The notes: a model not told the origin generated them from the sequence alone. 64,000 nucleotides of DNA from Methanothrix sp. (GCA_040770465.1 JAXGJB010000007.1:629-64628), one strand, 5' to 3'; positions 1 to 45,553 are shown, counted from the stretch's first letter. Numbers and translations: made by a program.

Positions 1-65
1 GGCATCTCCGAAATCGTAACCAGTGCGCGTTCTTTCATGTTTGTAAGATTCTTAGGAGGGCAAAA

Positions 66-722
66 TTGAACATGACCACATTTCCCGGATCCCCGCGCCT
101 GATCAAGGGCGCCATAATCGGGCTCGATCCCGTGAACCCGCTGGCGAGCGTGATAGTATTTCAGTACAACCCGGACACCATGACCCGGCGTATCGAAGCG
201 CGCTCCATGGGAGGAGAGGGCGGAGAGAGATCCGAGGCCTTCCGCCTCACCGGTCCTCCCAAGGAGAACATCACTCTGAATATCGAGCTGGACGCGACAG
301 ATCAGCTGGAGGAGGCTCACCCCGTGGCTGTAGCTTCGGGGGTGAGTCCAGCTCTATCCGCTCTGGAGATGCTGATCTATCCCAAAAGCGCCGCCGTGAT
401 ATCCAATGCCGCTCTGGCTCAGATCGGCAACATCGAGATGATACCGCCAGAGGCACCTCTCACACTGTTCGTCTGGGGGCCCCGCGTCCTGCCGGTGAGA
501 ATAACCGGCGTCAGCATCACCGAGGAGGCGTATGACACTCTCTTGAACCCCATCCGAGCCAAGGTGGACCTGAGCCTTTACGTGCTCAGCTACGCAGACC
601 TGAAGCTGACCCACCCCGGCTACAGCCTCTTCCTCGCCTACCAGATCACAAAAGAGGTTATTGCCACTACAAATGTCTTCAACAGCGTCCAGAACATAGG
701 CGCATCCCTGAAGCTTTTCTGA
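66..722 (+). CDS. Contractile-tail tube-fold protein, tube-initiator-like (equivalent of Afp7/Pvc7 N-terminal domain)
   Basis: 218-aa ORF with GGAGG at 54-58. N-terminal LIKGAIIGLD..VFQYNPDTMTRRIEA resembles the F-x-[FY]-N-P-[DE] signature of CIS/phage tube-fold proteins. First gene of a tightly coupled + strand string. ATG at 72 is an alternative to the TTG at 66. Confidence 0.6.
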   Translation: MNMTTFPGSPRLIKGAIIGLDPVNPLASVIVFQYNPDTMTRRIEARSMGGEGGERSEAFRLTGPPKENITLNIELDATDQLEEAHPVAVASGVSPALSALEMLIYPKSAAVISNAALAQIGNIEMIPPEAPLTLFVWGPRVLPVRITGVSITEEAYDTLLNPIRAKVDLSLYVLSYADLKLTHPGYSLFLAYQITKEVIATTNVFNSVQNIGASLKLF

Positions 723-731
723 GGTGAAGAT

Positions 732-1028
732 ATGTTCTCCCCTACCAGTCGTTATTATGGAATCGAGACCGCCGTTCTCAAGACTTCAGACGGAAAGGAG
801 ATCGCCTACTTGCGGCGCCGTTTCCTCCCCCCGGCAGAGATCGTGACGGTCATGGCCGAGCATTTGGTAACTGAAGGAGAGAGGCTGGACAACATTACCG
901 CCCGTTATCTCGTCGATCCCGAGCAGTTCTGGAGGCTATGCGACGCCAACAACGCCATGCGACCCGATGAGCTGACCGAAGTCATAGGCAGACGACTGAT
1001 GATCCCGCTGCCCCAGGGAGGCCAATAG
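732..1028 (+). CDS. LysM-like domain protein (equivalent of the C-terminal LysM part of Afp7/Pvc7, encoded separately)
   Basis: 98 aa with GAGGTGA RBS at 721-727. ERLDNITARYLVDPEQFWRLCDANN resembles the LysM-type motif normally fused to CIS tube-initiator proteins. It lies 9 nt after the preceding stop. Confidence 0.5.
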   Translation: MFSPTSRYYGIETAVLKTSDGKEIAYLRRRFLPPAEIVTVMAEHLVTEGERLDNITARYLVDPEQFWRLCDANNAMRPDELTEVIGRRLMIPLPQGGQ

Positions 1029-2150
1029 GTGCCCGATCTTGGCGTGCGCCTTCAGATTCTTATCGGCCCTACTGTCCCTCTGCCAGCATCCTATTCCGTA
1101 GTGGATGCCCTGGTAGAGGTGGAGGTCGAGAACAATGACAGAGACTTCGACGGGTTCAAGCTCACCTTCAACCTGGGCAAGGACTCTCTTCTCGACTATG
1201 GCCTGCTGCAGAGGGGAGAACTCGATCCACCCAGCCGTGCGATAATAGTCGCCATAATCAACGGACTGCCCCAGGTGCTGATCGATGGATTCATCACCAG
1301 ACACGAGTTCGCTCCCAGCAACCAGCCTGGAGAGTCCAGGCTTTTGGTCTACGGCAAAGACATCACCATGAAGCTCGATCTGGAAGAGAAGAATGAGCCC
1401 TATCCCAACCAGTCCGACTCGCTCATCGCCAAAAGGATCCTGACCTCACCCCCATATGCCGCCCTTGGATTGATGCCCCAGGTCACCTCCACCACAGATG
1501 TGCCCGTAGAGGTGGAGCGGGTCCCATCGCAGCAGGGAACCGATCTCGCCTTCCTGCGAGAGCTGGCGAGCCGTAACGGCTTCGTCTTCTACATCGAGCC
1601 CACAACCGTTCCCGGAGTAAACACCGCCTACTGGGGGCCGGATAACCGGCTGGGCATCCCTCAACCTGCACTCACCATGAACATGGGCTCTGAAACGAAT
1701 GTGGACACCCCCATCAACTTCAGCTACGATGCCCTGGGACCAGAAGAGCCTCAGATAACCATCGTAGAACCATTGACGAAGCTTGCCATTCCCATCCCCC
1801 TGCCCGGGGGGCTTCGCCCGCCGCTGGCCAGAAATCCTGCCAGACCCCTGAGAAGGACTCTTCGCAGAGATACCGCCAACCTCAATCCTGCCCAGGCGGC
1901 CCTTCGAGGACTGGCTTCTCAGACCGGCTCATCCGATGCTGTCAATGCTAGCGGCGAGATCGATTCGCTGCGATACGGCCGGGCTCTGAAATCACGCCGG
2001 CTGGTGGGAGTGCGCGGCGTCGGCGAGAGCTATGACGGCAATTACTACGTGCAGACGGTCACCCATCGCATAAAGCAGGGCGAATACAGGCAGAGCTTCA
2101 CCCTGGCGCGTGAAGGGCTCGGCACTCTAGTTCCTCTGGTGGTGGCATGA
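1029..2150 (+). CDS. Phage late control gene D (gpD)/VgrG N-terminal-like baseplate hub protein
   Basis: 373 aa, GTG start preceded by GGAGG at 1017-1021. The C-terminal GNYYVQTVTHRIKQGEYRQSFTLAREG is typical of gpD/gp27-like hub proteins. Sits immediately before the gp5-like gene. Confidence 0.75.
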   Translation: MPDLGVRLQILIGPTVPLPASYSVVDALVEVEVENNDRDFDGFKLTFNLGKDSLLDYGLLQRGELDPPSRAIIVAIINGLPQVLIDGFITRHEFAPSNQPGESRLLVYGKDITMKLDLEEKNEPYPNQSDSLIAKRILTSPPYAALGLMPQVTSTTDVPVEVERVPSQQGTDLAFLRELASRNGFVFYIEPTTVPGVNTAYWGPDNRLGIPQPALTMNMGSETNVDTPINFSYDALGPEEPQITIVEPLTKLAIPIPLPGGLRPPLARNPARPLRRTLRRDTANLNPAQAALRGLASQTGSSDAVNASGEIDSLRYGRALKSRRLVGVRGVGESYDGNYYVQTVTHRIKQGEYRQSFTLAREGLGTLVPLVVA

Positions 2151-2635
2151 CCAGACAATTCTTCGGCAAGTTCAGGGGCGTGGTCACAGATAACCGTGAC
2201 CCACTCATGCTGGGCAGGATACGGGCCCGGGTGCAGGATGTCCTTGGTGAAAACGAGAGTGGTTGGGCACTTCCCAGCCTGCCCTATGCCGGCAACGGCG
2301 TGGGATTGTTCCTGGTCCCGCCTGTCGACGCCTCGGTCTGGATAGAGTTCGAGCACGGAGACCCGGACTATCCAATCTGGACGGGATGCTTCTGGTCTCA
2401 GGGAGAGCTTCCGGCAACTCCCGCCGTGGCGGAGATGAAAGTTCTCAAGACCGACGCCGGAACCATCACCATCAACGACCTTCCGGGAGCTGGCGGCATA
2501 ACCATAGAGACGACTGCGGGCATGAAGATCGTGATCGATATGACGGGTATTGAGATTAACAACGGCATGGGGGGGAGCATCAAGCTCAACGGACCCAAGG
2601 TATCCATAAACGAAGGCGCCCTGGAGGTTTTATGA
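2147..2635 (+). CDS. Baseplate spike protein, gp5/gpV OB-fold (VgrG C-terminal-like)
   Basis: 162 aa with ATGA overlap to the upstream gene. GKFRGVVTDNRDPLMLGRIRARV...WALPSLPYAG...VWIEFEHGDPDYPIWTGCFW is the classic gp5/gpV OB-fold motif set. Confidence 0.8.
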   Translation: MTRQFFGKFRGVVTDNRDPLMLGRIRARVQDVLGENESGWALPSLPYAGNGVGLFLVPPVDASVWIEFEHGDPDYPIWTGCFWSQGELPATPAVAEMKVLKTDAGTITINDLPGAGGITIETTAGMKIVIDMTGIEINNGMGGSIKLNGPKVSINEGALEVL

Positions 2636-2958
2636 TGCCCGGTTTTCTTCTTCACGAAGGAGCTGTGGTTTTATGTATGCATGCAGGTCAGGCGAAGCCG
2701 ATGGTGACAAACCCCAGAGTTAAGGTGAGTGGCAGGGCTACAGTAACCCAGACAAGTATTTACTCGGTGACAGGATGCACCCTTCCCCCGCCTTCAGTGG
2801 CCAATGGGCCGTGCGTCACCGCCCAGTGGATCAGTGCCGCAACAAGGGTCAGCTCCGGCGGGATTCCTTTACTTCTGCAGGATAGTCAGGCCATCTGTGC
2901 TCCCACGGGCACTGGACTGAATATAGTCATAACTCAGTTTCGCGTCAGGGGGATTTGA
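2632..2958 (+). CDS. PAAR-like spike-tip protein (DUF4280-like)
   Basis: 108 aa with ATGA overlap. Small Cys/Gly-rich beta protein (VLCMHAGQ..TGCTLPPP..GPCVTAQW..AICAPTG) in the position held by PAAR/Afp10-type tips, directly after the spike. Confidence 0.55.
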   Translation: MMPGFLLHEGAVVLCMHAGQAKPMVTNPRVKVSGRATVTQTSIYSVTGCTLPPPSVANGPCVTAQWISAATRVSSGGIPLLLQDSQAICAPTGTGLNIVITQFRVRGI

Positions 2959-3320
2959 TGAATATCGATTATCCATATCAGTTCTCCGGTCTGGGAAAAA
3001 CCGCCCTCACAGAAGACGAGGATCACATCCGCGACATGATAGAACAGTTCCTCTTCACCAGCCCCGGTGAACGGGTGAACCGACCGGATTTCGGCAGCGG
3101 ACTATTGCAGATGGTCTTCGCCCCCAACAGCCAGGAGCTGGCGGCCGCCCTTCAGTTCACCATCCAGGCCGGACTGCAAAGATGGCTCGGCGACCTGATC
3201 GAGGTCCACTCTGTACGGGTGGAGAGCGAGGATGCAACACTGCGAGTTCTTGTGCAGTATCTGGTCCGCAGAACCGGAGAGCAACGCACGGCGACACTGG
3301 AAAGAGGTGGCCTCCAATGA
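2955..3320 (+). CDS. Baseplate wedge protein, GPW/gp25 family
   Basis: 121 aa. IRDMIEQFLFTSPGERVNRPDFGSGL is the canonical gp25/gpW motif. The TTG at 2955 overlaps the upstream stop; ATG at 2958 is an equally good start. Confidence 0.85.
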   Translation: MMNIDYPYQFSGLGKTALTEDEDHIRDMIEQFLFTSPGERVNRPDFGSGLLQMVFAPNSQELAAALQFTIQAGLQRWLGDLIEVHSVRVESEDATLRVLVQYLVRRTGEQRTATLERGGLQ

Positions 3321-6316
3321 AAGTGCCGGAAATAAAGTGTCAGGAAGATATGCGCCGCAAATCTGTTCGCGCGATGCAGCTCAACGGCCTGGATCATCTG
3401 GATGAGAGCGAGAACCCCTTGAAGCTATACGTCTACTTCCTGGGAAAGCTGCCGCCGGATTTGACGGAAGAAAACGCCATGGACCACGTGATCATCGATG
3501 GCGGCAAGCGTATTCGAGATTTAAGGATCGCAGATATCGACCTCGTCCACAGAGATGAGCCGGATCTGGACGACTACATGGTGGTCCATCTGGATAAACG
3601 GGGAGATTTTTCCACCTACACCCTCCGTTTGGTTGATCTGGAGGGGATCGATCCGCGATACGATCATCTGGACTTCAGCTTTCTGGCAGGCTGCCCCAGC
3701 GACCTGGACTGCAAGGAGAAGAGAATCTGTCCGCCTCCGAAACGCTCCGAGCCGGAGATCAGCTATCTTGCCAAGGATTATTCGAGCTTCCGCCAGCTTA
3801 TCCTCGACCGCCTCTCCCTGATCATGCCCCAGTGGCAGGAACGGCATATTCCGGACATTGGAATAGCTCTGGCGGAGATTCTGGCCTATGCAGGAGACTA
3901 CCTCAGCTACTACCAGGATGCTGTAGCCTCTGAGGCTTATCTGGATACCGCCCGGCAGCGCATCTCCGTTCGCCGACATGTCCGTCTGGTGGACTATCTT
4001 ATGCACGAGGGCTGCAACTCCAGAACCTGGGTCTGTGTGGAGACCGAGGACCGCACCAGACTCGAGCCGGAAGACTATTTCTTGGCGCCGACCGGAACTG
4101 CTCTTCCGATCCCTGGCAATTCTCTGACCGAAGAAGAGCTCATGAGAGTTCCTCCTGACGAGTATCTAGTCTTTGAGCCGCTGGTAAAAGAGTCCAGGGA
4201 ATTTTATAAAGCTCACAACCGAATAGAGTTCTATACCTGGGGTGGAGAGGAATGCTGCCTGCTGAGAGGGGCGACTTCTGCCACCCTCAAGGACAGCTGG
4301 ATCCAGGATGAAGAGACTGAAGAAACTGAAGAGATTTTGCCTGAGGAACAACAGCAGATTGAGCAGAAGCATCCAACTCCAACCCCTCCATCTGAAAAAG
4401 AGAGATGTCTGCATCTCATGGCCGGAGACGTGCTCATCTTTGAGGAGGTCAGGGGACCCAGTACCGGCAATCGTGCGGACGCAAATCCCAACCACCGCCA
4501 TGCTGTGCGCCTGACCAGGGTTATGCCCGGCGTGGACGATCTGACCTGCCAGCCGATCGTGAACATAGAATGGGCTCCTGAAGATGCCCTGCCTTTCACG
4601 CTATGCATCTCGTCACTCGGCTCGCCCCCGAAATGCGAGCTTCTGGATGACGTCAGCGTGGCCAGGGGCAACGCGGTCCTGGTCGATTACGGCAAAACAA
4701 CGGATCCCGAATCCATCAACGTGCCAGAAGGCGAGGAGGTGTCAGCGGGCTGCAGGGGAATAGGAGAGCCGAACGAGAGCGTCATCAAGACGGAGATGTT
4801 CCGTCCCCGGCTCCAGTTATTCCCAGTTACGCATGCAGTTGCTTTTCCGGAGCCGTCAGATGCCAGCCAGGTCCAGGCCAGGACGCTGACCGGGCTTTTA
4901 GATCGGGTCCTGTCCGGGGCTGAAGAGCTCTGGAGGAAGGCCAGATCGGGGATCTGCCTCTCAGAAGAGGAGATCGCCCAGGTGAGACGCATCTTCGGAT
5001 CCAGGGCGCTTGATGATGTCGATCTTCGGATAGATAAGACGTACAAAAGGCTTGATGATGTCGATCTTCAGATAGATAAGACTTACAAAAGTAATGATCC
5101 AGCCTGCAAGAAGCAGGCACGGTCCCTGAAAAAGCTGCTTGATTCCGAGGAGACGTATCTCGCCGGGAAACGAAGGCGAGTGGATCTGCTGGCGAAAAGG
5201 GCCAGCTCCGGATATGTTATGGGAATCGCTGAGGCAAAAGAGATAGAAGCGATGTTCGGCGAAAGCTATGCCCTCGAGCTGGAACGCTCCTATAATCACA
5301 TATCCGCCAGGCTTTCCATCGGCCAGGATCCGAGATATGCCGGGCCCTGTATAAGCCTCAAGGAGAAGGAGACGGGAGCGGCATGGACGGCCGAACGCGA
5401 TCTTCTGGCAAGCGGGCCTTTAGATCGCCATTTTGTAGCTGAGATAGAGAATGATGGCCATGCTGTTCTTCGCTTTGGTGATGGCCATATGGGGGAGGCG
5501 CCCCTTCCAGGAGTTGAGATGGAGGCCGTTTACAGAGTGGGCAACGGCCCGAGGGGAAATGTGGGCCCGGAGGCGATATCATACCTGGTCTTCCATATCC
5601 CCGGCCGGGACGGAATCGAGAGGATCCGAAATCCTCTGCCTGCGGTGGGCGGCACAGATCCTGAGCCGCTTATCGATGTCAAGCTCCTTGCTCCGGGAGC
5701 CATCCGCAAGGATCTGCAACGAGCCATCACCGCCGATGATTATGCCCTGCTCGTGGAGAGAGACTTTGAGGACCGAGTTCAGAGAGCCGCCGCCCAGATG
5801 CGCTGGAATGGGAGCTGGTATGAGGTGCATGTGGCGGTCGATCCCCGGCAGACGACAGAAATAGACGAGGGACTGCTCGATGAAGTGGCAGGAAGGCTGC
5901 AGCGATACCGCCGCATCGGCCATAACCTGGCGGTAAGGCCGGCGGAGTATGTCCCTCTGGATATTGAGATGATCGTATGCGTCCAAGACGATCATCATCG
6001 TGGCCAGGTGAAAGCCGATCTTCTGGATGTGTTCAGCAATCGCACCCTGCCTGATGGGAGATTGGGTCTCTTCCACCCCGACAATCTGACTTTTTCCAAT
6101 GGCATACGCCTGAGCAATCTTGTGGCCACAGCCCAGGCGGTTTCTGGAGTAAAGACCGTTATGGTCACCAAACTTGAGAGGCTCTTCCAAGGGCCTGAAC
6201 ACGAGATTGAGAATGGGATCCTGCCCATAGGTCCTATGGAGGTGGCGAGGCTGGACAATGATCCCAGCTTCCCGGAGAATGGCAGACTGGCGTTGCTTAT
6301 GCGAGGTGGAATATGA
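3317..6316 (+). CDS. Baseplate J-like / gp6-like wedge protein (Afp11 equivalent, putative baseplate assembly protein)
   Basis: The six-frame ORF opens at 3182, but the ATG at 3317 forms an ATGA overlap with the gp25 stop, giving about 999 aa. YLAKDYSSFRQLILDRL..ALAEILAYAGDYLSYYQD and the C-terminal GGTDPE..RAITADDYALLV motifs are baseplate-J-like. Its position after gp25 is conserved in eCIS and P2-like baseplates. Confidence 0.75.
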   Translation: MKVPEIKCQEDMRRKSVRAMQLNGLDHLDESENPLKLYVYFLGKLPPDLTEENAMDHVIIDGGKRIRDLRIADIDLVHRDEPDLDDYMVVHLDKRGDFSTYTLRLVDLEGIDPRYDHLDFSFLAGCPSDLDCKEKRICPPPKRSEPEISYLAKDYSSFRQLILDRLSLIMPQWQERHIPDIGIALAEILAYAGDYLSYYQDAVASEAYLDTARQRISVRRHVRLVDYLMHEGCNSRTWVCVETEDRTRLEPEDYFLAPTGTALPIPGNSLTEEELMRVPPDEYLVFEPLVKESREFYKAHNRIEFYTWGGEECCLLRGATSATLKDSWIQDEETEETEEILPEEQQQIEQKHPTPTPPSEKERCLHLMAGDVLIFEEVRGPSTGNRADANPNHRHAVRLTRVMPGVDDLTCQPIVNIEWAPEDALPFTLCISSLGSPPKCELLDDVSVARGNAVLVDYGKTTDPESINVPEGEEVSAGCRGIGEPNESVIKTEMFRPRLQLFPVTHAVAFPEPSDASQVQARTLTGLLDRVLSGAEELWRKARSGICLSEEEIAQVRRIFGSRALDDVDLRIDKTYKRLDDVDLQIDKTYKSNDPACKKQARSLKKLLDSEETYLAGKRRRVDLLAKRASSGYVMGIAEAKEIEAMFGESYALELERSYNHISARLSIGQDPRYAGPCISLKEKETGAAWTAERDLLASGPLDRHFVAEIENDGHAVLRFGDGHMGEAPLPGVEMEAVYRVGNGPRGNVGPEAISYLVFHIPGRDGIERIRNPLPAVGGTDPEPLIDVKLLAPGAIRKDLQRAITADDYALLVERDFEDRVQRAAAQMRWNGSWYEVHVAVDPRQTTEIDEGLLDEVAGRLQRYRRIGHNLAVRPAEYVPLDIEMIVCVQDDHHRGQVKADLLDVFSNRTLPDGRLGLFHPDNLTFSNGIRLSNLVATAQAVSGVKTVMVTKLERLFQGPEHEIENGILPIGPMEVARLDNDPSFPENGRLALLMRGGI
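5008..5091 (+). repeat. In-frame 42-bp tandem duplication (2 copies, 2 mismatches) inside the baseplate J-like gene
   Basis: gcttgatgatgtcgatcttcGgatagataagacGtacaaaag at 5008-5049 is repeated at 5050-5091. It encodes LDDVDLRIDKTYKR / LDDVDLQIDKTYKS. Confidence 0.95.
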
Positions 6317-9300
6317 AAGACATTTGTGGATGCTGCGAGGGTCTGGAGAAGGCGGTCCCATTGAGCACTGCCAACAGACCGTATCTTGATGCCCTCTCCT
6401 ATCGGGTGGGCACGCACGCCACTTTCCTGGAGACGATGGTGGCCAATCTCACTGACCACAGCCTGGATATCCTTTCAAATACGGGAGAACGGATCCGACC
6501 TCTGCAAGAGCTGACCGTTCGCGGCTCAGATGATCCCTCTATTGCCATCCTGGATGCATGGGCGGTTGTGGCCGATGTGCTCACGTTCTATCAGGAAAGG
6601 ATAGCCAATGAAGGATACCTGCGCACGGCCACCGAACGCCGCTCCATTCTGGAGCTGGCAAAGCTCGTGGGCTACAGTCTGCGACCGGGAGTGTCGGCCA
6701 GCGTCTTTCTGGCCTTCAATCTGGAGAAGGGCTACAACCTGACGATAGATCCGGGGATGAGGGTCCAGACCCTGCCGGGTCCCGGAGAGCTGCCCCAGTC
6801 CTTTGAGACATCCGAGCCCCTGGAGGCAAGGGAGGTGTGGAATAGTCTTGGGGTGAGGACGACAAAACCTCAGTATATCAACCGGATCAACGCCGACCCT
6901 GAAGAAGCGGGTATGGAGGCCATCAACAAGGTCTTCCTGAGCGGGATATCTGCCAGCCTTAATCCTAACGATCCTCTCCTGATGGTCTTTGATCCGATCA
7001 TTCCTATTGCGGTCTTCAGGCAGGTCGAATCGGCGGAGCTGCAGCCGGCAAAGAACAGGACGATGGTCAAGCTCCAGACTCCTGCTGGCGAAGGGGAACA
7101 AAAGATATCTTCCGTAAGCCCGGACGATCTATCAGTCCCTCTATCCAAACCCGTATCGAGGCTCCAGACTCCTGCTGGCGAAGGGGAACAAGGGATATCT
7201 ATCGTAAGCCTGGATGATCTTGATCTATTGGCCTCTCTATCCAAACCCGCATCGAGGCCGCCTGCAACACCCAGGCGGCTCGCAAGAAGCATCGAGCAAT
7301 CATTTGGCTCTGCATCGGATATAGGACCCCAGCTCCTGACGGCGCTGAACCTCCCCCTGAAGCATAACCTTTACGCTGCCTGGGTGGGTGCCAAGGTCGT
7401 CGAAGATTCGGATATGAAGAGCCTGGATGCGTTAAGGGTAAAAGCCAGGCCCTTCGGCCACAATGCGCCTTTGAAGCCCATCTACGATGACGGGTGCGTC
7501 CCCATAGGCCATGAGGAGTGGCCTCTGACCGAGACCGTGACGGCCAGTGTGAGCATAACCGCATCCCAGATTGTCGTCGCTTCAAGTGGACTTGCAGCAA
7601 GAGCTGTTGCCAGCACCGTCAACATCGTCCCCGTCCCCGTCCTCTTCTCTGTCAAGCGGGGAGCTAAGATACAGAGCAGGCTCGTCTGGATGTCACCAGG
7701 AATGCTGCTGACAAATCCGACGATTAACCTTGGCGACGAAGTTGTCAGGATTACTCTGACCCCCGGCATTCGCTTCATCAATCTGCTGGAGGGCACATCC
7801 AACGTGGACGTCTATGCCAACGGGATCAAGGTCCTGGAGAACGTACCATTCGCCAGTGAGAAGATTGTGCTCCAATTCGTCCTGATGCCGCCCATTGATG
7901 GAACGGAATTAAAGCTTCAGGTAACGGAGGCAGGTGAATCGATCAAAAATTCGCTTATAACTCGAGATATAGCTATCGACGAGGGAAAAGCCTATACCAT
8001 TGTTGCGCTGGGCAAGGATAAGAAAAGACGTCTGACGGTGCTGGCCGATGAACTGCCAGCTTCGGCCGACGAGGCAACCGTTCACTTCGTCCATGCATCC
8101 ATTGGCACTCCTCAGGTTAATTTCTCCATAGACCGCGAGGGCAATGTGCTTGCGAGTGAAAAAGGGATATCTTTTGCCGGTTCTATAAGCATCATTACGT
8201 CGCCCGGCAAGGCCGATTGGACTATCGAAGAAACAAAAACGAAGGAGAATATTCACAATGGCAGTCTTGTTTTAGGCGCTGGAGGCATTTATATTGTTCT
8301 TCTAGCGCCAACGAGCGAAAATGATCATACTTCAGTCGCAATAAACGCTGACATCTCGCTCTCGGATAAGACTCCATTGCTGCTTAAATCCATCCTATCC
8401 ATCGACTTTACAGCGCTCGAGCGAAAATTCAAACTCTCGCTGGAAAAGGGCACGAATGATTATCCATTAGTGAACGTTCGAGTTCTCTCTGGCGGTGCTA
8501 CGATATTGAGGGACAGCCTCAGCGTCCAAGATATCCTGGAGAGATCGATCGGTGGCCACAGGATCAGGGTGGAGTATTATTCACCGAATTGTCTGATATC
8601 CGATGAGTCACCCATCCCCTTATCCCAGGATCAGAAGTATATCGTAGCTCTGGAATCAAAGTTTGATGAGATACTGCCCGGAAGCCTGGCGGTGATAGAA
8701 AAGGCAACGATCAGACCACCCGAAGTCGAACGAACCATAGCCAGGGTTCTGGAAGTCCAGACGGTATCAAAGGCAGATTTCGGCATCACCGGCGACGTGA
8801 CTCAGCTCATCCTCGATCGACCCTGGCTGACGGATTCGGACACAACCTTGGCCAGCCTTCGCAATACCGTTGTTTATGCCCAGAATGAACCCCTCGATAT
8901 TTCAGACGAAGAGATCGATCCCGTTGAAGGAGCAGTGTGCGGCGACGCTATCGAGCTTGACGGCCTCTACGACGGACTGAAGTCAGGCCGGTGGCTGATA
9001 GTCTCGGGAGAGAGGACGGATGTACCGGCCACCAGCGGCGTCATGGCGAGCGAGCTCGCCATGCTCGCATCTGTCACCCAAGGGGTGCAGAATTTGCCTG
9101 AAGATGAAGATGACGGAGAAGATCAGCGCTATCTTCCAGGCGACAAAACTCATACCTTCATTAAGTTGGCAGAGAAGCTGGCTTACTGCTACAAGCTGGA
9201 CACCGTCAAAATCTATGCTAATGTGGCCAAGGCCACCCACGGCGAGACGCGAAACGAAGTGCTGGGAAGCGGAGATGCGAGCCGTGATTTCCAGAAGTTC

Positions 9301-10374
9301 CAGCTCCGTCAGTCTCCATTGACCTATCTTGCAGCTGCCACTCCTGCAGGAGCGGAGAGCACTCTGCAGGTGAGGGTGGATGACTTGCTCTGGCACGAGA
9401 TAGATAGCCTGGCGGAATCGGAGCCGACCGACCGAAGCTACATCACAGCTTCAGATGATGAGAGCAAGACAAAAGTCATTTTCGGCAACGGCGAGCGTGG
9501 ATCTCGACTGCCTACCAGAGCCGAGAACGTCAGGGCAGTATATCGATCGGGCATAGGCAAACCCGGCAACGCCAGAGCAGGACAGATCAGCCTTCTGGCA
9601 ACCCGCCCTCTGGGAGTGAAGAGCGTGATCAATCCCCTGCCCGCAACGGGCGGAGCCGATCGAGAGGATAGAGATCAGGCGCGGCGCAACGTGCCTCTGG
9701 CCGTCCTGGCACTCGACCGCCTGGTCTCGGTGCAGGACTATGCTGATTTTTCCCGTACCTTCGCGGGCATAGGAAAGGCGATGGCTGCCGAGCTCTCAGA
9801 CGAGAGAAGACGGGTCGTCTTCATAACCATAGCTGGAACGGAGGATATACCCATCGATTATCATTCCGATCTGTACGTCAACCTCCTTTCGGCACTGCAT
9901 AAGTTGGGGGACCCGCATCTTCAGATCCGGGTCGAGACAAGAGAGCTACTGCTGCTGGTCATTAGCGCCAAGGTTCGAGTGAAATCCGACTACCTCTGGG
10001 ATAAGGTCGAGCCTTTGATCAAGGCCGAGCTATTGGATACTTTCAGCTTCGAGCGCCGCGATCTGGGACAGGATGTCCTCCCCAGCGAGGTTATCGGCGC
10101 CATTCAAGGAGTCAAGGGCGTGGACTACGTGGATGTGGATGTGATCGCCGGGATACCTGAGAAGAAACTGGACGACGGGGTGAGAAGGATTCTGACGCCG
10201 GAAGAGATGCTGAGTGAGGTCAAAAAGGCGCTCGAAGAAGGCACAGGACCCCTGCACAGGGTTTCTGTGAACCTGGCTGGCAAAGAAGAGGATGGTCTTT
10301 TCCGGCCAGATCAGATCGCCTACCTCACACCTGACGTTCCTGATACATTGATTCTCACGGAGTTGAAAGAATGA
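6313..10374 (+). CDS. Giant baseplate wedge protein (Afp12/gp7-like, putative baseplate assembly protein) with inserted beta-sandwich domains
   Basis: 1353 aa with ATGA overlap. The N-terminus (YRVGTHATFLETM..ILDAWAVVADVLTFYQERIANEGYLRTATERRSILELAKLVGY) and C-terminus (GGADREDRDQARRNVPLAVLALDRLVSVQDYADF) resemble the paired baseplate assembly proteins of tail-like clusters. The central part is not conserved-looking. Confidence 0.65.
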   Translation: MKDICGCCEGLEKAVPLSTANRPYLDALSYRVGTHATFLETMVANLTDHSLDILSNTGERIRPLQELTVRGSDDPSIAILDAWAVVADVLTFYQERIANEGYLRTATERRSILELAKLVGYSLRPGVSASVFLAFNLEKGYNLTIDPGMRVQTLPGPGELPQSFETSEPLEAREVWNSLGVRTTKPQYINRINADPEEAGMEAINKVFLSGISASLNPNDPLLMVFDPIIPIAVFRQVESAELQPAKNRTMVKLQTPAGEGEQKISSVSPDDLSVPLSKPVSRLQTPAGEGEQGISIVSLDDLDLLASLSKPASRPPATPRRLARSIEQSFGSASDIGPQLLTALNLPLKHNLYAAWVGAKVVEDSDMKSLDALRVKARPFGHNAPLKPIYDDGCVPIGHEEWPLTETVTASVSITASQIVVASSGLAARAVASTVNIVPVPVLFSVKRGAKIQSRLVWMSPGMLLTNPTINLGDEVVRITLTPGIRFINLLEGTSNVDVYANGIKVLENVPFASEKIVLQFVLMPPIDGTELKLQVTEAGESIKNSLITRDIAIDEGKAYTIVALGKDKKRRLTVLADELPASADEATVHFVHASIGTPQVNFSIDREGNVLASEKGISFAGSISIITSPGKADWTIEETKTKENIHNGSLVLGAGGIYIVLLAPTSENDHTSVAINADISLSDKTPLLLKSILSIDFTALERKFKLSLEKGTNDYPLVNVRVLSGGATILRDSLSVQDILERSIGGHRIRVEYYSPNCLISDESPIPLSQDQKYIVALESKFDEILPGSLAVIEKATIRPPEVERTIARVLEVQTVSKADFGITGDVTQLILDRPWLTDSDTTLASLRNTVVYAQNEPLDISDEEIDPVEGAVCGDAIELDGLYDGLKSGRWLIVSGERTDVPATSGVMASELAMLASVTQGVQNLPEDEDDGEDQRYLPGDKTHTFIKLAEKLAYCYKLDTVKIYANVAKATHGETRNEVLGSGDASRDFQKFQLRQSPLTYLAAATPAGAESTLQVRVDDLLWHEIDSLAESEPTDRSYITASDDESKTKVIFGNGERGSRLPTRAENVRAVYRSGIGKPGNARAGQISLLATRPLGVKSVINPLPATGGADREDRDQARRNVPLAVLALDRLVSVQDYADFSRTFAGIGKAMAAELSDERRRVVFITIAGTEDIPIDYHSDLYVNLLSALHKLGDPHLQIRVETRELLLLVISAKVRVKSDYLWDKVEPLIKAELLDTFSFERRDLGQDVLPSEVIGAIQGVKGVDYVDVDVIAGIPEKKLDDGVRRILTPEEMLSEVKKALEEGTGPLHRVSVNLAGKEEDGLFRPDQIAYLTPDVPDTLILTELKE
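7071..7256 (+). repeat. In-frame ~90-bp tandem duplication (90 + 96 bp) inside the giant baseplate gene
   Basis: gctccagactcctgctggcgaaggggaaca occurs at 7071 and again at 7161. It encodes LQTPAGEGEQKISSVSPDDLSVPLSKPVSR / LQTPAGEGEQGISIVSLDDLDLLASLSKPASR. The second copy has a 6-bp insertion. Confidence 0.95.
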
Positions 10375-12620
10375 GCCAATCCAAGGACCGTCTATATGAT
10401 CTGCTTCCCGCGGTCTACCGTCAGCGAGATGCAGATCAGGGCTATCCCCTGAAGGCACTCCTCGAGGTGATCTCAGATCAGGTGAAGGTCGTGGAGGACG
10501 ACATCACCGGCCTCTACGAAAACTGGTTCATCGAGACGTGTCAGGACTGGGCCGTACCCTATCTGGGGGATCTGATCGGCTATCGGCCGGTATCTCATGC
10601 CGGCGGGCCAGGAGATGCGACAAAGCCCGAAGGCGTCGAGCTCAACAGGATAATCTTTCCCAGAAGCGAGATCGCAAATACCATAAGATACCGGCGAAGA
10701 AAGGGCACTCTGGCTCTGCTAGAAGAGCTGGCCAAGAGCGCTTCTGGTTGGCCGGCCAGGGCGGTGGAGTTTTATCGGCTCCTCCGTGTAGCTCAGCATA
10801 TCAACCACCAGCATCTGGATAGAGGCAGAACTGTTGACATGCGCTCAGGAGATGCCCTGGAACGTCTGGGGGGCCCCTTCGATGAGCTGGCTCATACTGT
10901 GGACGTGCGCCGAATAAAATCGCATCGTACACGCGGGAGGCACAACATCCCCAGCGTCGGAGTCTTCGTATGGAGGCTGAAGTCCTACCCCATCACGCAG
11001 GCTCCGGCGTACTACATGGATAGGGACCTGAACCACTTCACTTTCAGCGTTCTGGGGCTCGACACCAACCTCTTCACAAAGCCCGTCGAGGAGCCGAACC
11101 CCGTTCATATCGCCGATGAGACGAACGTCCCCACCATCATCAGGCGACGGGCCTTCGAGGAGAGGATGGAGGATTTCTATGGTGAGGGCAAGAGCCTCTG
11201 CATCTGGCGAGCCGATCTGGATCATCCGATTCCAATTGAGAACATAATTGCTGCTGATCTCAGCGATTGGTCTTATGCACCCCTGGGGGATGGTGTTGCC
11301 GTAGATCCCGAGCTCGGGCGAATAGCCCTATCCAGTTCTTTTTCTCAGGAAAATTCCGATGCTGGGATCTGGGTATCCTATCACTACGGATTCAGCGCCG
11401 ATATGGGTGGCGGAGAGTATCCGAGAAAGCTGAGAAGGACTACCGGCCGGGAGATCTACCGGGTGGGCCCGTTTGAGAGCTTCCAGAAGATAAGCGATGC
11501 TCTGAATCAGTGGAAAGACGATAAAATTGAAGACGGGAAAAAGCGCGACGCCATCATAGAAATTGAGGATAGCGGCGCTTATGCGGAGAAGATCAAGATC
11601 ACACTGGAATCAGGCGACCGGTTGGAGCTGAGGGCCGCCAACGGCAAAAGACCGGTCATCCGCCTATTGAACTGGGAGACAAATCGACCGGATTCTCTGA
11701 AGATCATCGGCACTGGCGGAGATGGAGGCCCCGCGTCCATAGTTCTGGATGGACTGGTCGTTACAGGAAGGGGCATAAAAGTAGCAGGAGAGCTTACAGA
11801 GGTCAAGATCCGTCATTGTACACTGGTTCCCGGCTGGATGCAGGAAGACGAACGTCAATCGCATAAGAGCGCGGCCCCGAGTCTTCGGCTAAAAAACACC
11901 ACTGCCCGTCTATCAATCGAGAGCAGTATCCTTGGACCCGTATTGATCAATCAGGATGAGGTGCAGACAGATCCGCTTTCTGTCTCCATCACCGATAGCA
12001 TACTGGACGCGACTGGTCCGGAAAAGAAGGCACTGGACGCTTCAGGATGTCCTGTGGCCTTTGCAAAGCTGACAGTCTTGAGGAGCACCATCTATGGCGA
12101 GACCCAGGTCAATTCCATCGATCTTGCTGAGAACTGCATATTCTTTGGCAAAGTAACAGTATGTCGCCGTCAGGAAGGATGTATGCGCTTCTGTTACCTC
12201 AGGCCCGGTTCCAGGACGCCGCGACGATATAACTGCCAGCCAGACCTCCTGGAGAATGCAGCAGAAGAGGAGATAAGAATCGACGCCGGAGAGCTGGGAT
12301 CTGCCCTTTCGACCTTATCCGATGTCGAGCTGAAAGAAGAGATAAAGGCTGCAAAAGAGCGGGAGAGACGACGGGTTGTTCCCCAGTTCAACAGCACCCA
12401 TTACGGCAGGCATGACTACTTCCAGCTGGCCGATTCCTTTGCTGAAGAGATAAAGAGGGGCGCAGACGACCAGTCAGAGATGGGAGCCTTCCACGACCTT
12501 TATCAACCCCAGAGGGAGGCGAACCTCTTGACCCGCATTGAAGAGTACACACCGGCAGGGGCAGATGTAGGAATCATTTTCGTGAACTTCTTGGAGGAGA
12601 AATATGAAAGGCGAGTTTAG
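10371..12620 (+). CDS. Phage tail protein, P2 gpI-like N-terminus fused to a probable right-handed beta-helix
   Basis: 749 aa with ATGA overlap. The N-terminal RLYDLLPAVYRQRDADQGYPLKALLEVI..NWFIETCQDWAVPYLGDLIG matches the gpI/tail-protein signature. The middle region has repetitive short beta-strand segments (IIEIEDSG..KITLESG..LELRAANG..) suggestive of a beta-helix. Confidence 0.7.
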   Translation: MSQSKDRLYDLLPAVYRQRDADQGYPLKALLEVISDQVKVVEDDITGLYENWFIETCQDWAVPYLGDLIGYRPVSHAGGPGDATKPEGVELNRIIFPRSEIANTIRYRRRKGTLALLEELAKSASGWPARAVEFYRLLRVAQHINHQHLDRGRTVDMRSGDALERLGGPFDELAHTVDVRRIKSHRTRGRHNIPSVGVFVWRLKSYPITQAPAYYMDRDLNHFTFSVLGLDTNLFTKPVEEPNPVHIADETNVPTIIRRRAFEERMEDFYGEGKSLCIWRADLDHPIPIENIIAADLSDWSYAPLGDGVAVDPELGRIALSSSFSQENSDAGIWVSYHYGFSADMGGGEYPRKLRRTTGREIYRVGPFESFQKISDALNQWKDDKIEDGKKRDAIIEIEDSGAYAEKIKITLESGDRLELRAANGKRPVIRLLNWETNRPDSLKIIGTGGDGGPASIVLDGLVVTGRGIKVAGELTEVKIRHCTLVPGWMQEDERQSHKSAAPSLRLKNTTARLSIESSILGPVLINQDEVQTDPLSVSITDSILDATGPEKKALDASGCPVAFAKLTVLRSTIYGETQVNSIDLAENCIFFGKVTVCRRQEGCMRFCYLRPGSRTPRRYNCQPDLLENAAEEEIRIDAGELGSALSTLSDVELKEEIKAAKERERRRVVPQFNSTHYGRHDYFQLADSFAEEIKRGADDQSEMGAFHDLYQPQREANLLTRIEEYTPAGADVGIIFVNFLEEKYERRV

Positions 12621-14136
12621 GGGAGATTTTTCACGAGACACCTTCGATCCGAGCAGGCACTTTTTGCGGGTGCTGATGCAGCAGGGAAGGGTCAGCCTGG
12701 ACGCAGACTGGAACGAGCAGACTGACATACTGCTGCATTATATGCAGACTCTGGCTGAGGATCTCATAGGGCCGTTTGCAGGACCTGAAGACGAAGTAGA
12801 ACGGGGATTCGGCATAACTGCAACCCCATCCAAGAGCTTCACCATCAGTCAAGGCCGATATTACGTCGACGGCATCCTCTGTGAGAACGAACCGGGAGAC
12901 GACTCATGCAACTCGGGGGACAAAGCCGAAATCGAATACTACAGCCAGCCGTACTTTCCTCGATCGGGCGAAAAGAGCGATTTCGAGACCAGCGATCTGC
13001 CCTTGCTGGTTTACCTTGACGTCTGGGAGCGGCATATCAGCTTCATCGAGGACGACCACATAAGGGAGAAGGCTCTGGGAGTGGCGGATACGGCGAGCAG
13101 GTCCAAGGTGGTCTGGCAGGTCAAAGCGCTGAAGTTAGCCAGCGACGAGATACTGAGCAAATTTATTAAGATATCTAGAGCGAAGACGCATTGTGAATCC
13201 ATCAGGCAAAATTGGAGCGTGATTGTGGAGAATCTGCTGCAAAATCCCCATCGAGGCTGTCTCAGGGCGAAGGCAAAGGAGACGGACGAGGTGCCAACTG
13301 ATCCCTGCATAGCTCCTCCCGGATCGAGTTACAGGGGAGAAGAGAACCAGCTATACCGGGTGGAGGTTCACCGAGGCGGATTTGCCCGGAATGCAGACAT
13401 CAAGGATGATTCCAAACAGTCTGCCACATTCAAGTGGTCTCGCGACAACGGCACCGTTGCCTTCCCCATCATCTCCAAGTTGGGCAATAAAGTGATGCTT
13501 GAGCACCTGGGGAGAGACGACCGGCTGAGCCTGAAGAAGGACGACTGGGTGGAGGTGCTCGATGACGACTATACGCTGCAGATCCTATCCAGGCCTTCTC
13601 CGTTGTCCAAAGCTCGGCCTCTGGTCCAGATTGATAATGTGGACAGGACGGAGATGACGGTGACCCTCAGGCTGCAGGACAGCTCAAAATTGCCTGACTA
13701 TGCGGAAGACGACCCAAAAATTCATCCGCTGCTCCGCCGCTGGGATCATGAGAGGGGCGATCCAGCAGAGCAAGATGAGCCTGTGCTGGCAGAAGACGAT
13801 GGAGCTCTCTATGTTGATGAAGGCAAATGGCTCACGCTGGAGGACGGGGTCCAGATCCTGTTCGAATCAAGCGAGTCCGTTCAAAGCTATCAGAGGGGCG
13901 ACTTTTGGCTGATCCCAGCGCGAACTGCCATCGGAGATGTAGAATGGCCGAAAGATTCGGAAGGGGCGGCATCAGCTCTTCCTCCTCGAGGAATCGATCA
14001 TCACTATGCTCCTCTGGCGGTCATTGATAAAGACAGTTCCGAGAAGGAAAATTGGGTGGTGCAGGAGGACTGCCGCTGTTCAATAGTCAGAGCATTATCC
14101 TGCGGAAGCGTAGCGAAGGAGAAAAAAGCCAGGTAG
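12604..14136 (+). CDS. Conserved distal tail-cluster protein (resembles the DUF6519-type partner of gpI-like genes); candidate fibre/receptor-binding component
   Basis: 510 aa with GGAGGAG RBS at 12593-12599 and a 17-nt overlap with the upstream gene. Motifs FSRDTFDPSRHF..MQQGRVSLDADWNEQ, ENQLYRVEVHRGG, FKWSRDNG, RRWD and GDFWLIPARTAIGDVEWP look like a family I have seen downstream of gpI-like genes. The family name is from memory and unverified. Confidence 0.5.
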   Translation: MKGEFRGDFSRDTFDPSRHFLRVLMQQGRVSLDADWNEQTDILLHYMQTLAEDLIGPFAGPEDEVERGFGITATPSKSFTISQGRYYVDGILCENEPGDDSCNSGDKAEIEYYSQPYFPRSGEKSDFETSDLPLLVYLDVWERHISFIEDDHIREKALGVADTASRSKVVWQVKALKLASDEILSKFIKISRAKTHCESIRQNWSVIVENLLQNPHRGCLRAKAKETDEVPTDPCIAPPGSSYRGEENQLYRVEVHRGGFARNADIKDDSKQSATFKWSRDNGTVAFPIISKLGNKVMLEHLGRDDRLSLKKDDWVEVLDDDYTLQILSRPSPLSKARPLVQIDNVDRTEMTVTLRLQDSSKLPDYAEDDPKIHPLLRRWDHERGDPAEQDEPVLAEDDGALYVDEGKWLTLEDGVQILFESSESVQSYQRGDFWLIPARTAIGDVEWPKDSEGAASALPPRGIDHHYAPLAVIDKDSSEKENWVVQEDCRCSIVRALSCGSVAKEKKAR

Positions 14137-14185
14137 CATCATAGAATAGCCATCGCCCGAGATTGAGAATCCCGGGCTCCATCCC

Positions 14186-14209
14186 TTTTTCCAAACCCAG
14201 CTTTTTTTC
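14186..14209 (+). terminator. T-tract (archaeal-type) terminator after the tail-like operon
   Basis: T5 at 14186-14190 and T7 at 14203-14209, 50-70 nt after the last stop codon of the coupled gene string. Confidence 0.45.
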
Positions 14210-14407
14210 ATCGGAATAAAGATGATGAGGAAAGGCGAGGAGAAGGTGGAGAGTAGTGAGGGGGAAGAGGGTGAGAGAGGAGGAAACGGAGACATATTGC
14301 GCCCCTGGATACCATCGAAAAATTTATTTGGGTTTGAACTCGAATAATAGATGGTTATTATCGCAAGCCATCTAATCGGAAGACGTTTACATCGAGGTGG
14401 ATTGAAT

Positions 14408-14842
14408 ATGATAAAAAATATTCGGGCGTTATCAGTATTGGCGCTGATGCTGATACCACTGGCGACGCTGCCCACAGCCTGCTGCGTAGGAGGGGACGGG
14501 GACCCGGAAATGGAGTTCGGCCAGACATATGAAGGAGAGATGGCCTATCTAGAGCTCGATTTTTGGAACCTTTATGTAGCCGGGCCGGGAACTGTGACGA
14601 TAGATATGGACGTCCAACCTGGATTAAAGGGTTTAATAGTGCTCTATCCTCCAGGTTATCTGATCACCGTTCCAGCTCCAACATTCGCCGAAGCGCCAAT
14701 GGGTGCCGACGTCACCCTGACGACGTACATATCCGAGCCGGGATGGTGTGATATTACGTTGCAGTACATCGACTATGACGAAGATATTATAGACAGGTCC
14801 TCCGAATATCCGTACACCATAAGGCCCATGTTTGCCGCTTAG
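14408..14842 (+). CDS. Small secreted protein (signal peptide; pre-peptidase-C-terminal-like beta domain?)
   Basis: The ATG at 14408 is preceded by GGTGG. N-terminal MIKNIRALSVLALMLIPLATLPTACC is signal/lipobox-like. No recognisable catalytic motif. Confidence 0.45.
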   Translation: MIKNIRALSVLALMLIPLATLPTACCVGGDGDPEMEFGQTYEGEMAYLELDFWNLYVAGPGTVTIDMDVQPGLKGLIVLYPPGYLITVPAPTFAEAPMGADVTLTTYISEPGWCDITLQYIDYDEDIIDRSSEYPYTIRPMFAA

Positions 14843-14948
14843 TGAAAAGTCGAACCTCCGATCCCCAAGTCTGAGTTCAACGTTCTGGTGAGCTCGCCGT
14901 GATTCACCGAAAACATACATATCCACCATCCACAAACCTGAGTAGATA

Positions 14949-15326
14949 ATGACGAACTTCAAGGTCCTTCTGGAGGGCGCCTGGCTGGTCAAGGACGTCA
15001 AATCCACCGATGACGCCATCGGGGTCGCGATATCGGAGGCCGGAAAGAGGCTGAACAATAAGAAGCTCGACTTCGTGGAGGTGGAGGTGGGCCAGACGAT
15101 CTGTCCCGCCTGCGGCGAGTCCCTCGACGGCGTCTTCATGGTGGCAGGAACGGCCCTCGTCGGCCTCCTCTTCGAGATCAAGGTCTACGATGCCGAGAAC
15201 GAGGAGCACGCCTTCCGGATCGCGAAGTCGACGGTCGGAAGGGCTCTGGGCGCCGTCCCCCTCAGGTTCGTGGAGGCGGAGGAGATCGAGGGTGGCCGGA
15301 CCGGAAAGCCGGTGAGGTCGCGGTGA
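14949..15326 (+). CDS. UPF0212/DUF555 family archaeal protein
   Basis: 125 aa. LLEGAWLVKDVKSTDDAIGVAISEAGKRLN..VEVEVGQTICPACGE..FEIKVYDAENEEHAFRIAK closely follows the archaea-specific UPF0212 pattern. Confidence 0.75.
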   Translation: MTNFKVLLEGAWLVKDVKSTDDAIGVAISEAGKRLNNKKLDFVEVEVGQTICPACGESLDGVFMVAGTALVGLLFEIKVYDAENEEHAFRIAKSTVGRALGAVPLRFVEAEEIEGGRTGKPVRSR

Positions 15327-15375
15327 CTCCAGAATAGAAACCCGGGCTTGAAATTGAGGGCGAAGATTCTGAGCT

Positions 15376-17505: not shown

Positions 17506-17637
17506 GGGAGCTTGGTTTCAGCTTAAAGGTTTTAAATGCTATCCATCTCACCCTGGGCTCAGTCTGCGGCTCGTCAGAGGGGTCATCGACGAAAAAGGTT
17601 TAAATATAATAGCATTATATGATATTATGAGAGTAAC

Positions 17638-18189: not shown

Positions 18190-18283
18190 CCTCGACGTCG
18201 GGCCTGAGGAAGCTTCAAGGTCGCTTTTGCCCTCGCCCGGATGAGTTTTGAAGTTATGCTATCGGATGAAAGGGAGAATAATC

Positions 18284-37265: not shown

Positions 37266-37266
37266 T

Positions 37267-43693: not shown

Positions 43694-43716
43694 GACAGCA
43701 TATTAATGTTCATCTC

Positions 43717-43729
43717 AATATAAACCCTT
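43717..43729 (-). promoter_or_regulatory. TATA-box element of ClC paralog 1 (AAGGGTTTATATT on the coding strand)
   Basis: The 13-mer is identical to the one upstream of paralog 2 (45554-45566). It ends 23 nt before the TTG start at 43693, implying a leaderless or very short-leader mRNA. Confidence 0.5.
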
Positions 43730-43814
43730 AACTCACCGTCTCTAATCCTCCCTTTTAACGCTGCCAAATGTCGAGAGGAACAAGAACTGTGGATCGGAGA
43801 ATCGGAGGTTCGGT

Positions 43815-45539: not shown

Positions 45540-45553
45540 TTAATGCCCATTGG

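Follow-up and report, generated by a model that had tools for sequence, protein, structure and literature searches.

A gene cluster for a probable phage-tail-like contractile injection system in an uncultured Methanothrix

Ten consecutive genes on the plus strand (72..14136) lie at the start of a 64,000-nucleotide (nt) stretch of DNA from Methanothrix sp. (GCA_040770465.1 JAXGJB010000007.1:629-64628), the whole of which is referred to here as the window. We describe these genes together with the left half of the cluster, as recovered from conspecific contigs, and conclude that they are very probably the distal half—baseplate, spike and fibre—of a complete phage-tail-like contractile injection system (CIS), a judgement that covers identity and generic mechanism, with the mode of action excluded. 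An original prediction, made from the sequence alone, had read them as part of an extracellular-type CIS (eCIS), with which both the profile matches and the left half agree. Methanothrix is among the main acetate-consuming methane producers in wetlands, sediments and digesters and lives in dense mixed aggregates; a system that is intact, evolves under purifying selection and has three polymorphic effector candidates offers a handle on how it may fight or signal to its neighbours.

Genes of the cluster

The ten open reading frames (ORFs) form a single chain with a coding fraction of 0.999. Reading of the junction sequences gives ATGA overlaps at 2147, 2632, 3317, 6313 and 10371, a TTGA(TG) junction at 2955 and a 17-nt overlap at 12604, with gaps of 9 nt (722/732) and 0 nt (1028/1029) at the first two boundaries; the ORF listing and the junctions agree exactly with the chain and overlaps originally predicted. 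Position 1 of the window falls 19 nt past the stop codon of an upstream gene encoding 255 amino acids (aa). At the other end, the predicted T-tract terminator is borne out by two T tracts beyond the stop codon at 14136, which by their sequence probably serve as an archaeal oligo-T terminator of the operon; a scan for bacterial hairpin terminators after the same stop codon found no match. Directly after the T tracts comes a purine-rich, GA-rich tract of ~80 nt (14210..14300; GAGGAGAAGGTGGAGAGTAGTGAGGGGGAAGAGGGTGAGAGAGGAGGAAACGGAGAC), followed by a 163-aa ORF with a signal-peptide-like N terminus and no family match (14351..14842). Two ORFs after the cluster are without a Pfam match.

The lower G+C content and greater use of A/T-ending codons that had been noted by eye are confirmed by the statistics. 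The CIS genes have a mean G+C content of 0.563 compared with 0.587 in 20 flank genes (Mann–Whitney p = 0.005) and a G+C content at third codon positions (GC3) of 0.652 compared with 0.780 (p = 0.0006). Neither a tRNA nor any Rfam family was found in the window, which therefore gives no lead to an attachment site.

Table 1 Features of the cluster in the window and, read from the outer end inwards, of its left half in conspecific contigs
Feature	Position	Strand	Basis
Tube-initiator-like protein, 216 aa (alternative TTG start at 66)	72..722	+	First gene of the baseplate half
Conserved 98-aa protein	732..1028	+	No family match
gp27/gpD-like baseplate hub, 373 aa	1029..2150	+	Reads as N-terminal part of a split VgrG
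gp5/gpV-type OB-fold spike, 162 aa	2147..2635	+	Reads as C-terminal part of a split VgrG
PAAR-like spike tip (DUF4280), 107-108 aa	2632..2958	+	Pfam DUF4280
gp25/gpW baseplate wedge protein (Afp9/Cis9 class), 120-121 aa	2955..3320	+	Pfam GPW_gp25, E = 6e-19
First baseplate J/gp6-like wedge protein (Afp11/Cis11 class), 999 aa from ATGA start	3317..6316	+	TIGR02243
Second Cis11-class baseplate protein, 1353 aa	6313..10374	+	TIGR02243, Baseplate_J, DUF4397
Conserved baseplate protein, 749 aa (Afp12/Cis12 position)	10371..12620	+	Synteny, family-level matches
DUF6519 (eBAP5) protein, 510 aa	12604..14136	+	Pfam DUF6519, E = 1e-95
T tracts, T5 near 14187 and T7 near 14202	14185..14210	+	50-70 nt past last stop codon, sequence read
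Sheath	Upstream of window position 1		Phage_sheath_1 and Phage_sheath_1C
Tube	Next after sheath		Phage_T4_gp19
PF12322 Zn-ribbon protein	After tube		Gene intact
Disordered 421-aa protein	After PF12322 gene		Conserved only at C terminus
Cap	After 421-aa gene		Pvc16_N (DUF4255), 1.7e-50
ATPase	After cap		WHD and AAA, 8e-27
Candidate effector block, in order: 83 aa, DUF4157 (354 aa), 45 aa, 56 aa, DUF4157 (466 aa), 255 aa	After ATPase; small-protein/DUF4157 region 14694..18685 of conspecific upstream contig		

Profile searches of the window proteins were made against Pfam and NCBIfam, and solved relatives were sought in the Protein Data Bank (PDB). The spike and the tip, predicted as gp5/gpV-type and PAAR-like, match Phage_base_V (E = 5e-25) and DUF4280 (E = 4e-6; bit score 27.8, cut-off 26.3). 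The gpD-type hub that had been proposed is supported, less strongly, by 4416 homologues with the source name 'phage late control D family protein', some of which carry PF05954, and by a match to NCBIfam VgrG_rel (E = 9e-7, residues 303–360), although the latter is weak; in the PDB it matches the VgrG 9rce_F (E = 3.6e-4). The spike matches NCBIfam vgr_GE and VgrG_rel in the region of the models that follows the hub's match, and together the two genes read as a split VgrG.

Ahead of the hub, the 216-aa protein has a CIS_tube match (E = 1.4e-4) that agrees with its predicted tube-initiator-like character but lies under the Pfam gathering cut-off. It holds a conserved position, with 60–86% identity in every related locus containing that part, and its sole PDB match is a non-significant one to 9rce_H, a 217-aa CIS 'peptidoglycan-binding protein' (E = 0.95); we tentatively give it an Afp7-class role. 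The 98-aa protein had been called LysM-like, a name for which there is no support in either Pfam (nothing at E <= 1) or the PDB (nothing meaningful at E <= 10); it is kept at the same position in every related locus covering it, at 53–88% identity.

The wedge proteins are largely as predicted. The gp25/gpW protein matches GPW_gp25, and the baseplate J-like protein and the second giant baseplate protein both match TIGR02243 (E = 2e-91 and 1e-71, respectively), with Streptomyces coelicolor Cis11 (9gtp_1K) as the only solved relative of either (E = 2.4e-7 and 3.6e-7). Among related loci, the 999-aa protein is conserved at its ends and divergent in the middle. The 1353-aa protein also matches Pfam Baseplate_J (9e-7) and DUF4397 (1e-15), the latter within a variable N-terminal region of ~770 aa, and only residues ~770–1353 are conserved. 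For the 749-aa protein, no match was found in Pfam, NCBIfam or the PDB, and a 46-member profile compared with the PDB likewise gave none. Its synteny is kept in every related locus extending to this position, its C-terminal half is variable and its family has 4725 representatives at E <= 0.001. As 8 of the 46 members weakly match Phage_Mu_Gp48 and 4 match Tail_P2_I, the earlier label 'gpI-like' holds for the family, if weakly, but finds no match in the protein itself, which is probably a wedge component of the gp7/P2 gpI/Mu gp48 class. A single-sequence AlphaFold model of this protein (pLDDT 33.5) was discarded.

The chain ends with the DUF6519 protein. DUF6519 is eBAP5, one of five eCIS baseplate-anchor domains of tail-fibre candidates (Nachmias et al. 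2026). An AlphaFold model of the protein (pLDDT 80.6) has its best fold matches, all with low TM-scores, in the DUF4815 baseplate protein of phage phi812 and in chains AA and AB of the thylakoid-anchored Anabaena CIS (tCIS; 7b5h_AA/AB), and also matches phage receptor-binding and tail-fibre proteins at low TM-scores; its N-terminal 90 aa match the DUF4815 protein ORF65. Its class is that of peripheral baseplate, short-fibre or crown proteins, and it stands at the tail-fibre gene position of eCIS loci. Some DUF6519 homologues, at 550–775 aa, have additional LysM, beta-helix (Beta_helix/NosD) or DUF4815 domains, such that the family behaves in the manner of modular fibre or receptor-binding proteins; the form in Methanothrix is the bare one of 510 aa.

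The left half was read from contigs of other assemblies with 99.07% nucleotide identity over window positions 1..12150, which lengthen the cluster by 11.5 kb to ~25.7 kb and 22 genes. The sheath, tube, ATPase and cap genes, which had been expected to lie to the left of the window, are found there, together with candidate payload genes and a putative tape measure, the 421-aa protein, so read from its position and composition. The PF12322 gene differs in length between contigs through start-codon calling only, its DNA being identical. An exact look-up of the window's hub gave no match, and that of its first gene gave one short Logan contig only.

Within the effector block, the 83- and 56-aa proteins are paralogues, each translationally coupled by a 4-nt overlap to the DUF4157 gene that follows; as this small protein is kept across the whole lineage, it is more likely to be an adaptor than an immunity protein. 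The 354-, 466- and 255-aa proteins have an N-terminal leader in common, with eCIS_core (DUF4157) matches of 3e-35 and 4e-28 and a degenerate third leader in the 255-aa protein, and their C termini differ; among related loci, conservation of the effector proteins is limited to the leaders. A DUF4157 leader with a variable C terminus is the architecture of eCIS polymorphic toxins (Geller 2021) and of the toxins of the haloarchaeal CIS, and on this pattern all three are candidate effectors. A second HExxH motif is present in the C-terminal part of the 354-aa protein. Pfam gave nothing for the C-terminal parts of the DUF4157 proteins, nor for the 255-, 83- and 421-aa proteins or a 167-aa protein encoded to the left of the sheath. 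No further DUF4157 genes were found in the other 50 kb of the window, and a truncated DUF4157 protein used as a query against genome contigs found no match.

Class, host and transfer

The cluster belongs to the Afp/PVC-related 'eCIS' superfamily and resembles lineage II, the home of the Streptomyces loci. All eight eCIS core backbone components of Chen et al. 2019 are present, the Afp7 class only tentatively. The sheath (Afp2/3/4) and tube (Afp1/5) come from the conspecific left extension rather than from the window itself; the others include the VgrG-like spike (Afp8), gp25 (Afp9), baseplate J as two paralogues (Afp11), the AAA+ ATPase (Afp15) and the cap (Afp16, Pvc16_N/DUF4255). Among markers, DUF4157 occurs twice, with a degenerate leader in addition, and DUF6519 once, and genes for a capsid or for the membrane complex of a type VI secretion system (T6SS) are absent. 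Neither the linked head or integrase genes of a contractile-tailed prophage were found nor, in a crude hydropathy scan, a multi-helix protein like Hbor_38620, the membrane protein of the archaeal T6SS-like system. The PAAR-like gene, which is absent only from subtype IIb (Chen et al. 2019), is present here; survey placements of archaeal eCIS loci are in subtypes IIa and IIc. The closest solved sheaths are Cis2 of Halogeometricum borinquense (9ezm, 9e-77) and the sheath of S. coelicolor (8bky/9gtp, 5e-76), with Pvc2, Afp2, AlgoCIS and tCIS as more distant relatives.

The original prediction also took the surrounding genes to be archaeal, and the flanks bear this out. Ten flank proteins were looked up in the protein collection, and nine, among them IleRS, RNase Z and a rhomboid protease, have exact matches there, eight of them on one 84.8-kb NCBI contig; the matches sit in 90% clusters with named members 'Methanothrix sp.' and, for one IleRS member, 'Methanothrix harundinacea'. 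Downstream lie genes for an XPD/Rad3 helicase, PspA, HtpX and HerA; to the left of the sheath come the 167-aa gene, which has no match, and genes for Tex, an M50 peptidase, an HD protein and an M24 peptidase. The left and right halves occur together in an NCBI metagenome-assembled genome (MAG) labelled Methanothrix soehngenii, and the cluster and its left junction (Tex, M50, HD, M24) recur in independent ENA, JGI and NCBI assemblies. These gene matches confirm the host as an uncultured Methanothrix (Methanotrichaceae) methanogen and the setting as an archaeal chromosome.

A scan for relatives that takes one genome per species and needs exact 8-residue matches found orthologous clusters in three Methanothrix/Methanosarcinales MAGs, with hub identities of 84–86%, and more distant ones in Methanoregula, Methanomassiliicoccales, Chloroflexia, Thermoanaerobaculia, Trichocoleus, Thiococcus and further bacteria. 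Across 11 related loci from archaea and bacteria, the gene order from cap to DUF6519 is identical wherever it is covered. Over 894 aligned positions of four concatenated core proteins, the Methanothrix clade is 68–70% identical to bacterial loci (Chloroflexia and another bacterium) and 69–70% identical to the other archaeal clade. The Methanoregula and Methanomassiliicoccales core proteins are 85% identical, in hosts of different archaeal phyla, and the Methanomassiliicoccales tube protein is 90% identical to that of Methanothrix; the sequence identities in these two cases point to a recent exchange between methanogens. For the hub, homologues in Nitrospira, Nitrosospira and Janthinobacterium show identities of about 68–72%. 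A neighbour-joining tree of the four core proteins did not settle whether the archaeal clades group together, and its bootstrap values came from differently rooted trees; only the identity matrix was used. The codon bias and the ~70% identity to bacterial proteins together indicate transfer between domains, in one direction or the other, and between archaeal orders, in keeping with the horizontal acquisition proposed earlier. A phage-tail machine can thus move between bacteria and several archaeal orders with its core still ~70% identical.

The ratio of non-synonymous to synonymous substitution (dN/dS) is 0.08–0.14 when measured against an orthologous cluster of 86% identity; within the species it is 0.19. 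This purifying selection in the Methanothrix lineage indicates that the genes are maintained and argues that the system is used. No cultured type strain turned up in the scan, given its need for exact 8-residue matches, which suggests that the island is accessory.

Mechanism, mode of action and alternatives

By analogy of its parts, a complex of hub, spike and PAAR-like tip would nucleate a wedge ring of gp25, the two Cis11 paralogues and the Cis12-like protein. Tube and sheath would polymerize on the baseplate so formed, the tape measure determining their length, and the cap would close the assembly, with the ATPase and the DUF4157 leaders loading the variable C-terminal toxins. A signal passing through the peripheral DUF6519 protein would trigger sheath contraction, driving the tube and spike with their cargo through a target membrane.

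Where this would take place is a separate matter, as 'extracellular' in eCIS is the name of a genomic class and not of a mode of action. The class has at least four modes: released (Afp, PVC), membrane-bound and contact-dependent (H. borinquense), cytoplasmic (Streptomyces) and thylakoid-anchored (Anabaena). We lean, at somewhat less than even odds, towards an envelope-independent mode, most likely the release of free particles, because there is no transmembrane anchor, a fibre-class protein is conserved and the same core occurs across different envelopes. A hydropathy scan of all cluster proteins and their neighbours gave nothing beyond a marginal hydrophobic segment and no transmembrane helices, and so no counterpart by this measure of the six-helix Hbor_38620, the bitopic CisA or Cis13 with its transmembrane helix; the core itself is found at 68–70% identity in diderm bacteria, Chloroflexia and several archaeal orders.

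Several observations weigh against release, or against the identification on which it builds. Both of the closest solved sheaths are from non-extracellular systems, membrane-bound in H. borinquense and cytoplasmic in Streptomyces, and no lysis genes that might free the particles were seen at the locus. The DUF6519 protein is short, and no extension that would obviously bind a receptor is seen in it. Weak matches or mere position underlie the assignments of tube initiator, LysM, tape measure and Cis12, the left half was read from conspecific contigs and not from the window's own assembly, and the identification is from genes alone, as for any methanogen system. Methanothrix filaments are, moreover, enclosed in a tough proteinaceous sheath, such that both release and firing are hard to picture.

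One alternative follows from the sheath. As the best solved match is Cis2 of H. borinquense, the only archaeal system with a known mode, the Methanothrix apparatus could be an archaeal type VI-like device, built at the producer's cytoplasmic membrane and fired from there on contact; both clusters have two Cis11 genes and an internal DUF4157 block, which includes toxins in H. borinquense. The haloarchaeal mode, however, correlates with the six-helix Hbor_38620, whereas the cluster and its neighbours hold only marginal hydrophobic segments; obvious immunity partners were not found, and the core is common to organisms with quite different envelopes. We consider this mode unlikely.

No better placed is action inside the producer, in which free or internally anchored particles would fire on stress and lead to regulated death or ghost cells, as in S. 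coelicolor and Anabaena. The full-length alignment of the sheath with that of the S. coelicolor CIS, the matches of both Cis11-class proteins to S. coelicolor Cis11, the resemblance of the DUF6519 model to Anabaena tCIS baseplate chains and the tie in the literature between DUF6519 and the tCIS crown domain all speak for it, and Methanothrix is filamentous, like Streptomyces and Anabaena. Against this, there is neither a CisA-like bitopic membrane protein nor a Cis13-like protein with a transmembrane helix, and Streptomyces lacks fibre genes whereas the Methanothrix cluster keeps one. Related clusters also occur in the genomes of Methanoregula and Methanomassiliicoccales, which are not known to be filamentous. 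A similarly doubtful proposal is that the lineage may be an inter-domain mobile module with a core that works whatever the envelope, and that in sheathed, filamentous Methanothrix it might, rather than being a free weapon outside the cell, fire from inside, either in the stress-triggered death or fragmentation of filament cells, as in Streptomyces and Anabaena, or against bacterial partners in methanogenic aggregates; if true, such a function would be new for methanogens. Free-particle release stays the mode that we prefer.

The identity of the cluster as a dedicated injection system is, by comparison, little threatened. A myovirus prophage, prophage remnant or R-type tailocin, as might be supposed from the homology of every structural part to contractile phage tails and from an insertion sequence (IS) transposase in the window at 32.7 kb, is highly improbable and was rejected, as neither the 7 kb upstream of the sheath nor the DNA downstream of the last gene includes a gene for a capsid, portal, terminase, integrase or lysis protein, the Pvc16_N cap, AAA+ ATPase, DUF4157 and DUF6519 are markers absent from phages and tailocins, and the best phage sheath is only 34% identical, compared with 85–92% over the sheath C terminus for CIS loci. 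The upstream part of this result comes from the conspecific contigs, in which head and integrase genes, the findings named beforehand as fatal to the original prediction, were sought and none was seen. Its statement that the window has no integrase stands for phage integrases, but not for the rve-family IS transposase (32701..33690, minus strand), 18 kb from the cluster. There is scarcely more to be said for a bacterial cluster wrongly joined to archaeal DNA in assembly or binning: the core proteins are unusually similar to bacterial ones (~70% identity) and the codon usage is unlike that of the flanks, but in the window the cluster runs without a break into 50 kb of Methanothrix genes, its recurrence with the left junction in independent ENA, JGI and NCBI assemblies makes mis-assembly very unlikely, other Methanothrix/Methanosarcinales MAGs have orthologous clusters, on contigs as long as 331 kb, a more distant relative lies in a closed 2.56-Mb Methanomassiliicoccales chromosome and GC3, at 0.65, is still high, indicating that the cluster genes are partly ameliorated. 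This reading, too, was rejected.

Elsewhere in the window, the IS transposase belongs to a low-G+C island at ~31–34 kb (G+C 0.42–0.47; genes at 29897..33690, minus strand), in which it adjoins a gene for a 772-aa protein with no family match and a GC3 of 0.55; the 29897..33690 island is probably a second foreign insertion. Another low-G+C stretch (~45000..48000; 0.42–0.47) includes a DUF2202 protein gene (46905..48059), and the 1.4 kb before that gene has no ORF of at least 180 aa. A 1054-aa protein with Peptidase_C25 and CARDB domains (PorU-like by NCBIfam) is followed by a 254-aa protein with cluster relatives named right-handed beta-helix repeat protein (34101..38031), possibly a pair for cell-surface processing. 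Two tandem paralogues of ClC-type chloride channels, each with C-terminal CBS domains, lie at 41951..45467 on the minus strand. The PspA/IM30 membrane-stress gene (18248..18979), 4 kb downstream of the cluster, is noted since stress triggers firing in the Streptomyces system; its position is probably coincidental.

Comparison with named systems

Surveys since 2014 list archaeal clusters of this type, those of methanogens and anaerobic methanotrophic archaea (ANME) included (Sarris 2014; Chadwick 2022; PMC12180501), and one survey table already includes a Methanothrix sheath protein. These clusters, variously described as phage-like-protein translocation structures (PLTS) or CIS and likened to ours by their descriptions, share methane-cycling Halobacteriota hosts and an inferred horizontal acquisition. 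The earlier statement that no archaeal system had been characterised is outdated, as that of H. borinquense has been (Zachs et al. 2024, PMC11566945), in a study that names methanogen systems as an unexplored next step. The Methanothrix cluster is therefore a well-preserved example of an already known kind, and knowledge of the kind is unchanged. Worth recording are its putative split VgrG, the large variable inserts of its two Cis11 paralogues, a distal DUF6519 protein of minimal form, the duplication of a module of small protein plus DUF4157 protein and an unusually high identity to bacterial counterparts.

The H. borinquense cluster (Zachs et al. 2024, PMC11566945) shares with that of Methanothrix an archaeal host, the top solved sheath match (9ezm), two Cis11 genes with Cis12 and a Cis13-position gene after them, the lack of a trans-envelope complex and an internal DUF4157 block, several of its DUF4157 proteins being secreted or toxic. 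Unlike it, the Methanothrix cluster is without the six-helix putative anchor Hbor_38620, as judged by hydropathy scan rather than by comparison of the sequences, has DUF6519 as its distal gene, is known from genes alone and resides in a sheathed methanogen, not an S-layer halophile.

The S. coelicolor CIS (Casu et al. 2023, 2025; 8bky, 9gtp) resembles it in the full-length alignment of the sheath (5e-76) and in a Cis11 that is related to both giant proteins, and both hosts are filamentous. That system is without a fibre gene and depends on CisA, a membrane protein whose gene lies downstream of those for the baseplate; in Methanothrix the position of CisA is held by DUF6519, and there is no membrane protein.

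With the Anabaena tCIS (Weiss et al. 2022; 7b5h), the Methanothrix cluster shares a related sheath (1.9e-40), large extra domains in baseplate proteins and the weak match of the DUF6519 model to the fold of three baseplate chains of ~700–730 residues; DUF6519 (eBAP5) is related to the tCIS crown domain (eBAP4) (Nachmias et al. 2026). It differs in having no Cis13 transmembrane helix, in the division between hub and spike and in its two Cis11 paralogues.

Afp and PVC, of lineage I, have the same eight core components, including the AAA+ ATPase and Pvc16-type cap, and the same overall order of sheath and tube, then hub, spike, gp25, J-like protein and fibre. In contrast to them, the Methanothrix cluster has one sheath gene rather than three, its VgrG appears to be split and its fibre class is DUF6519 rather than the adenovirus-like Afp13; the ATPase, cap and tape measure lie mid-cluster instead of at the end, as do the candidate effectors with their DUF4157 leaders.

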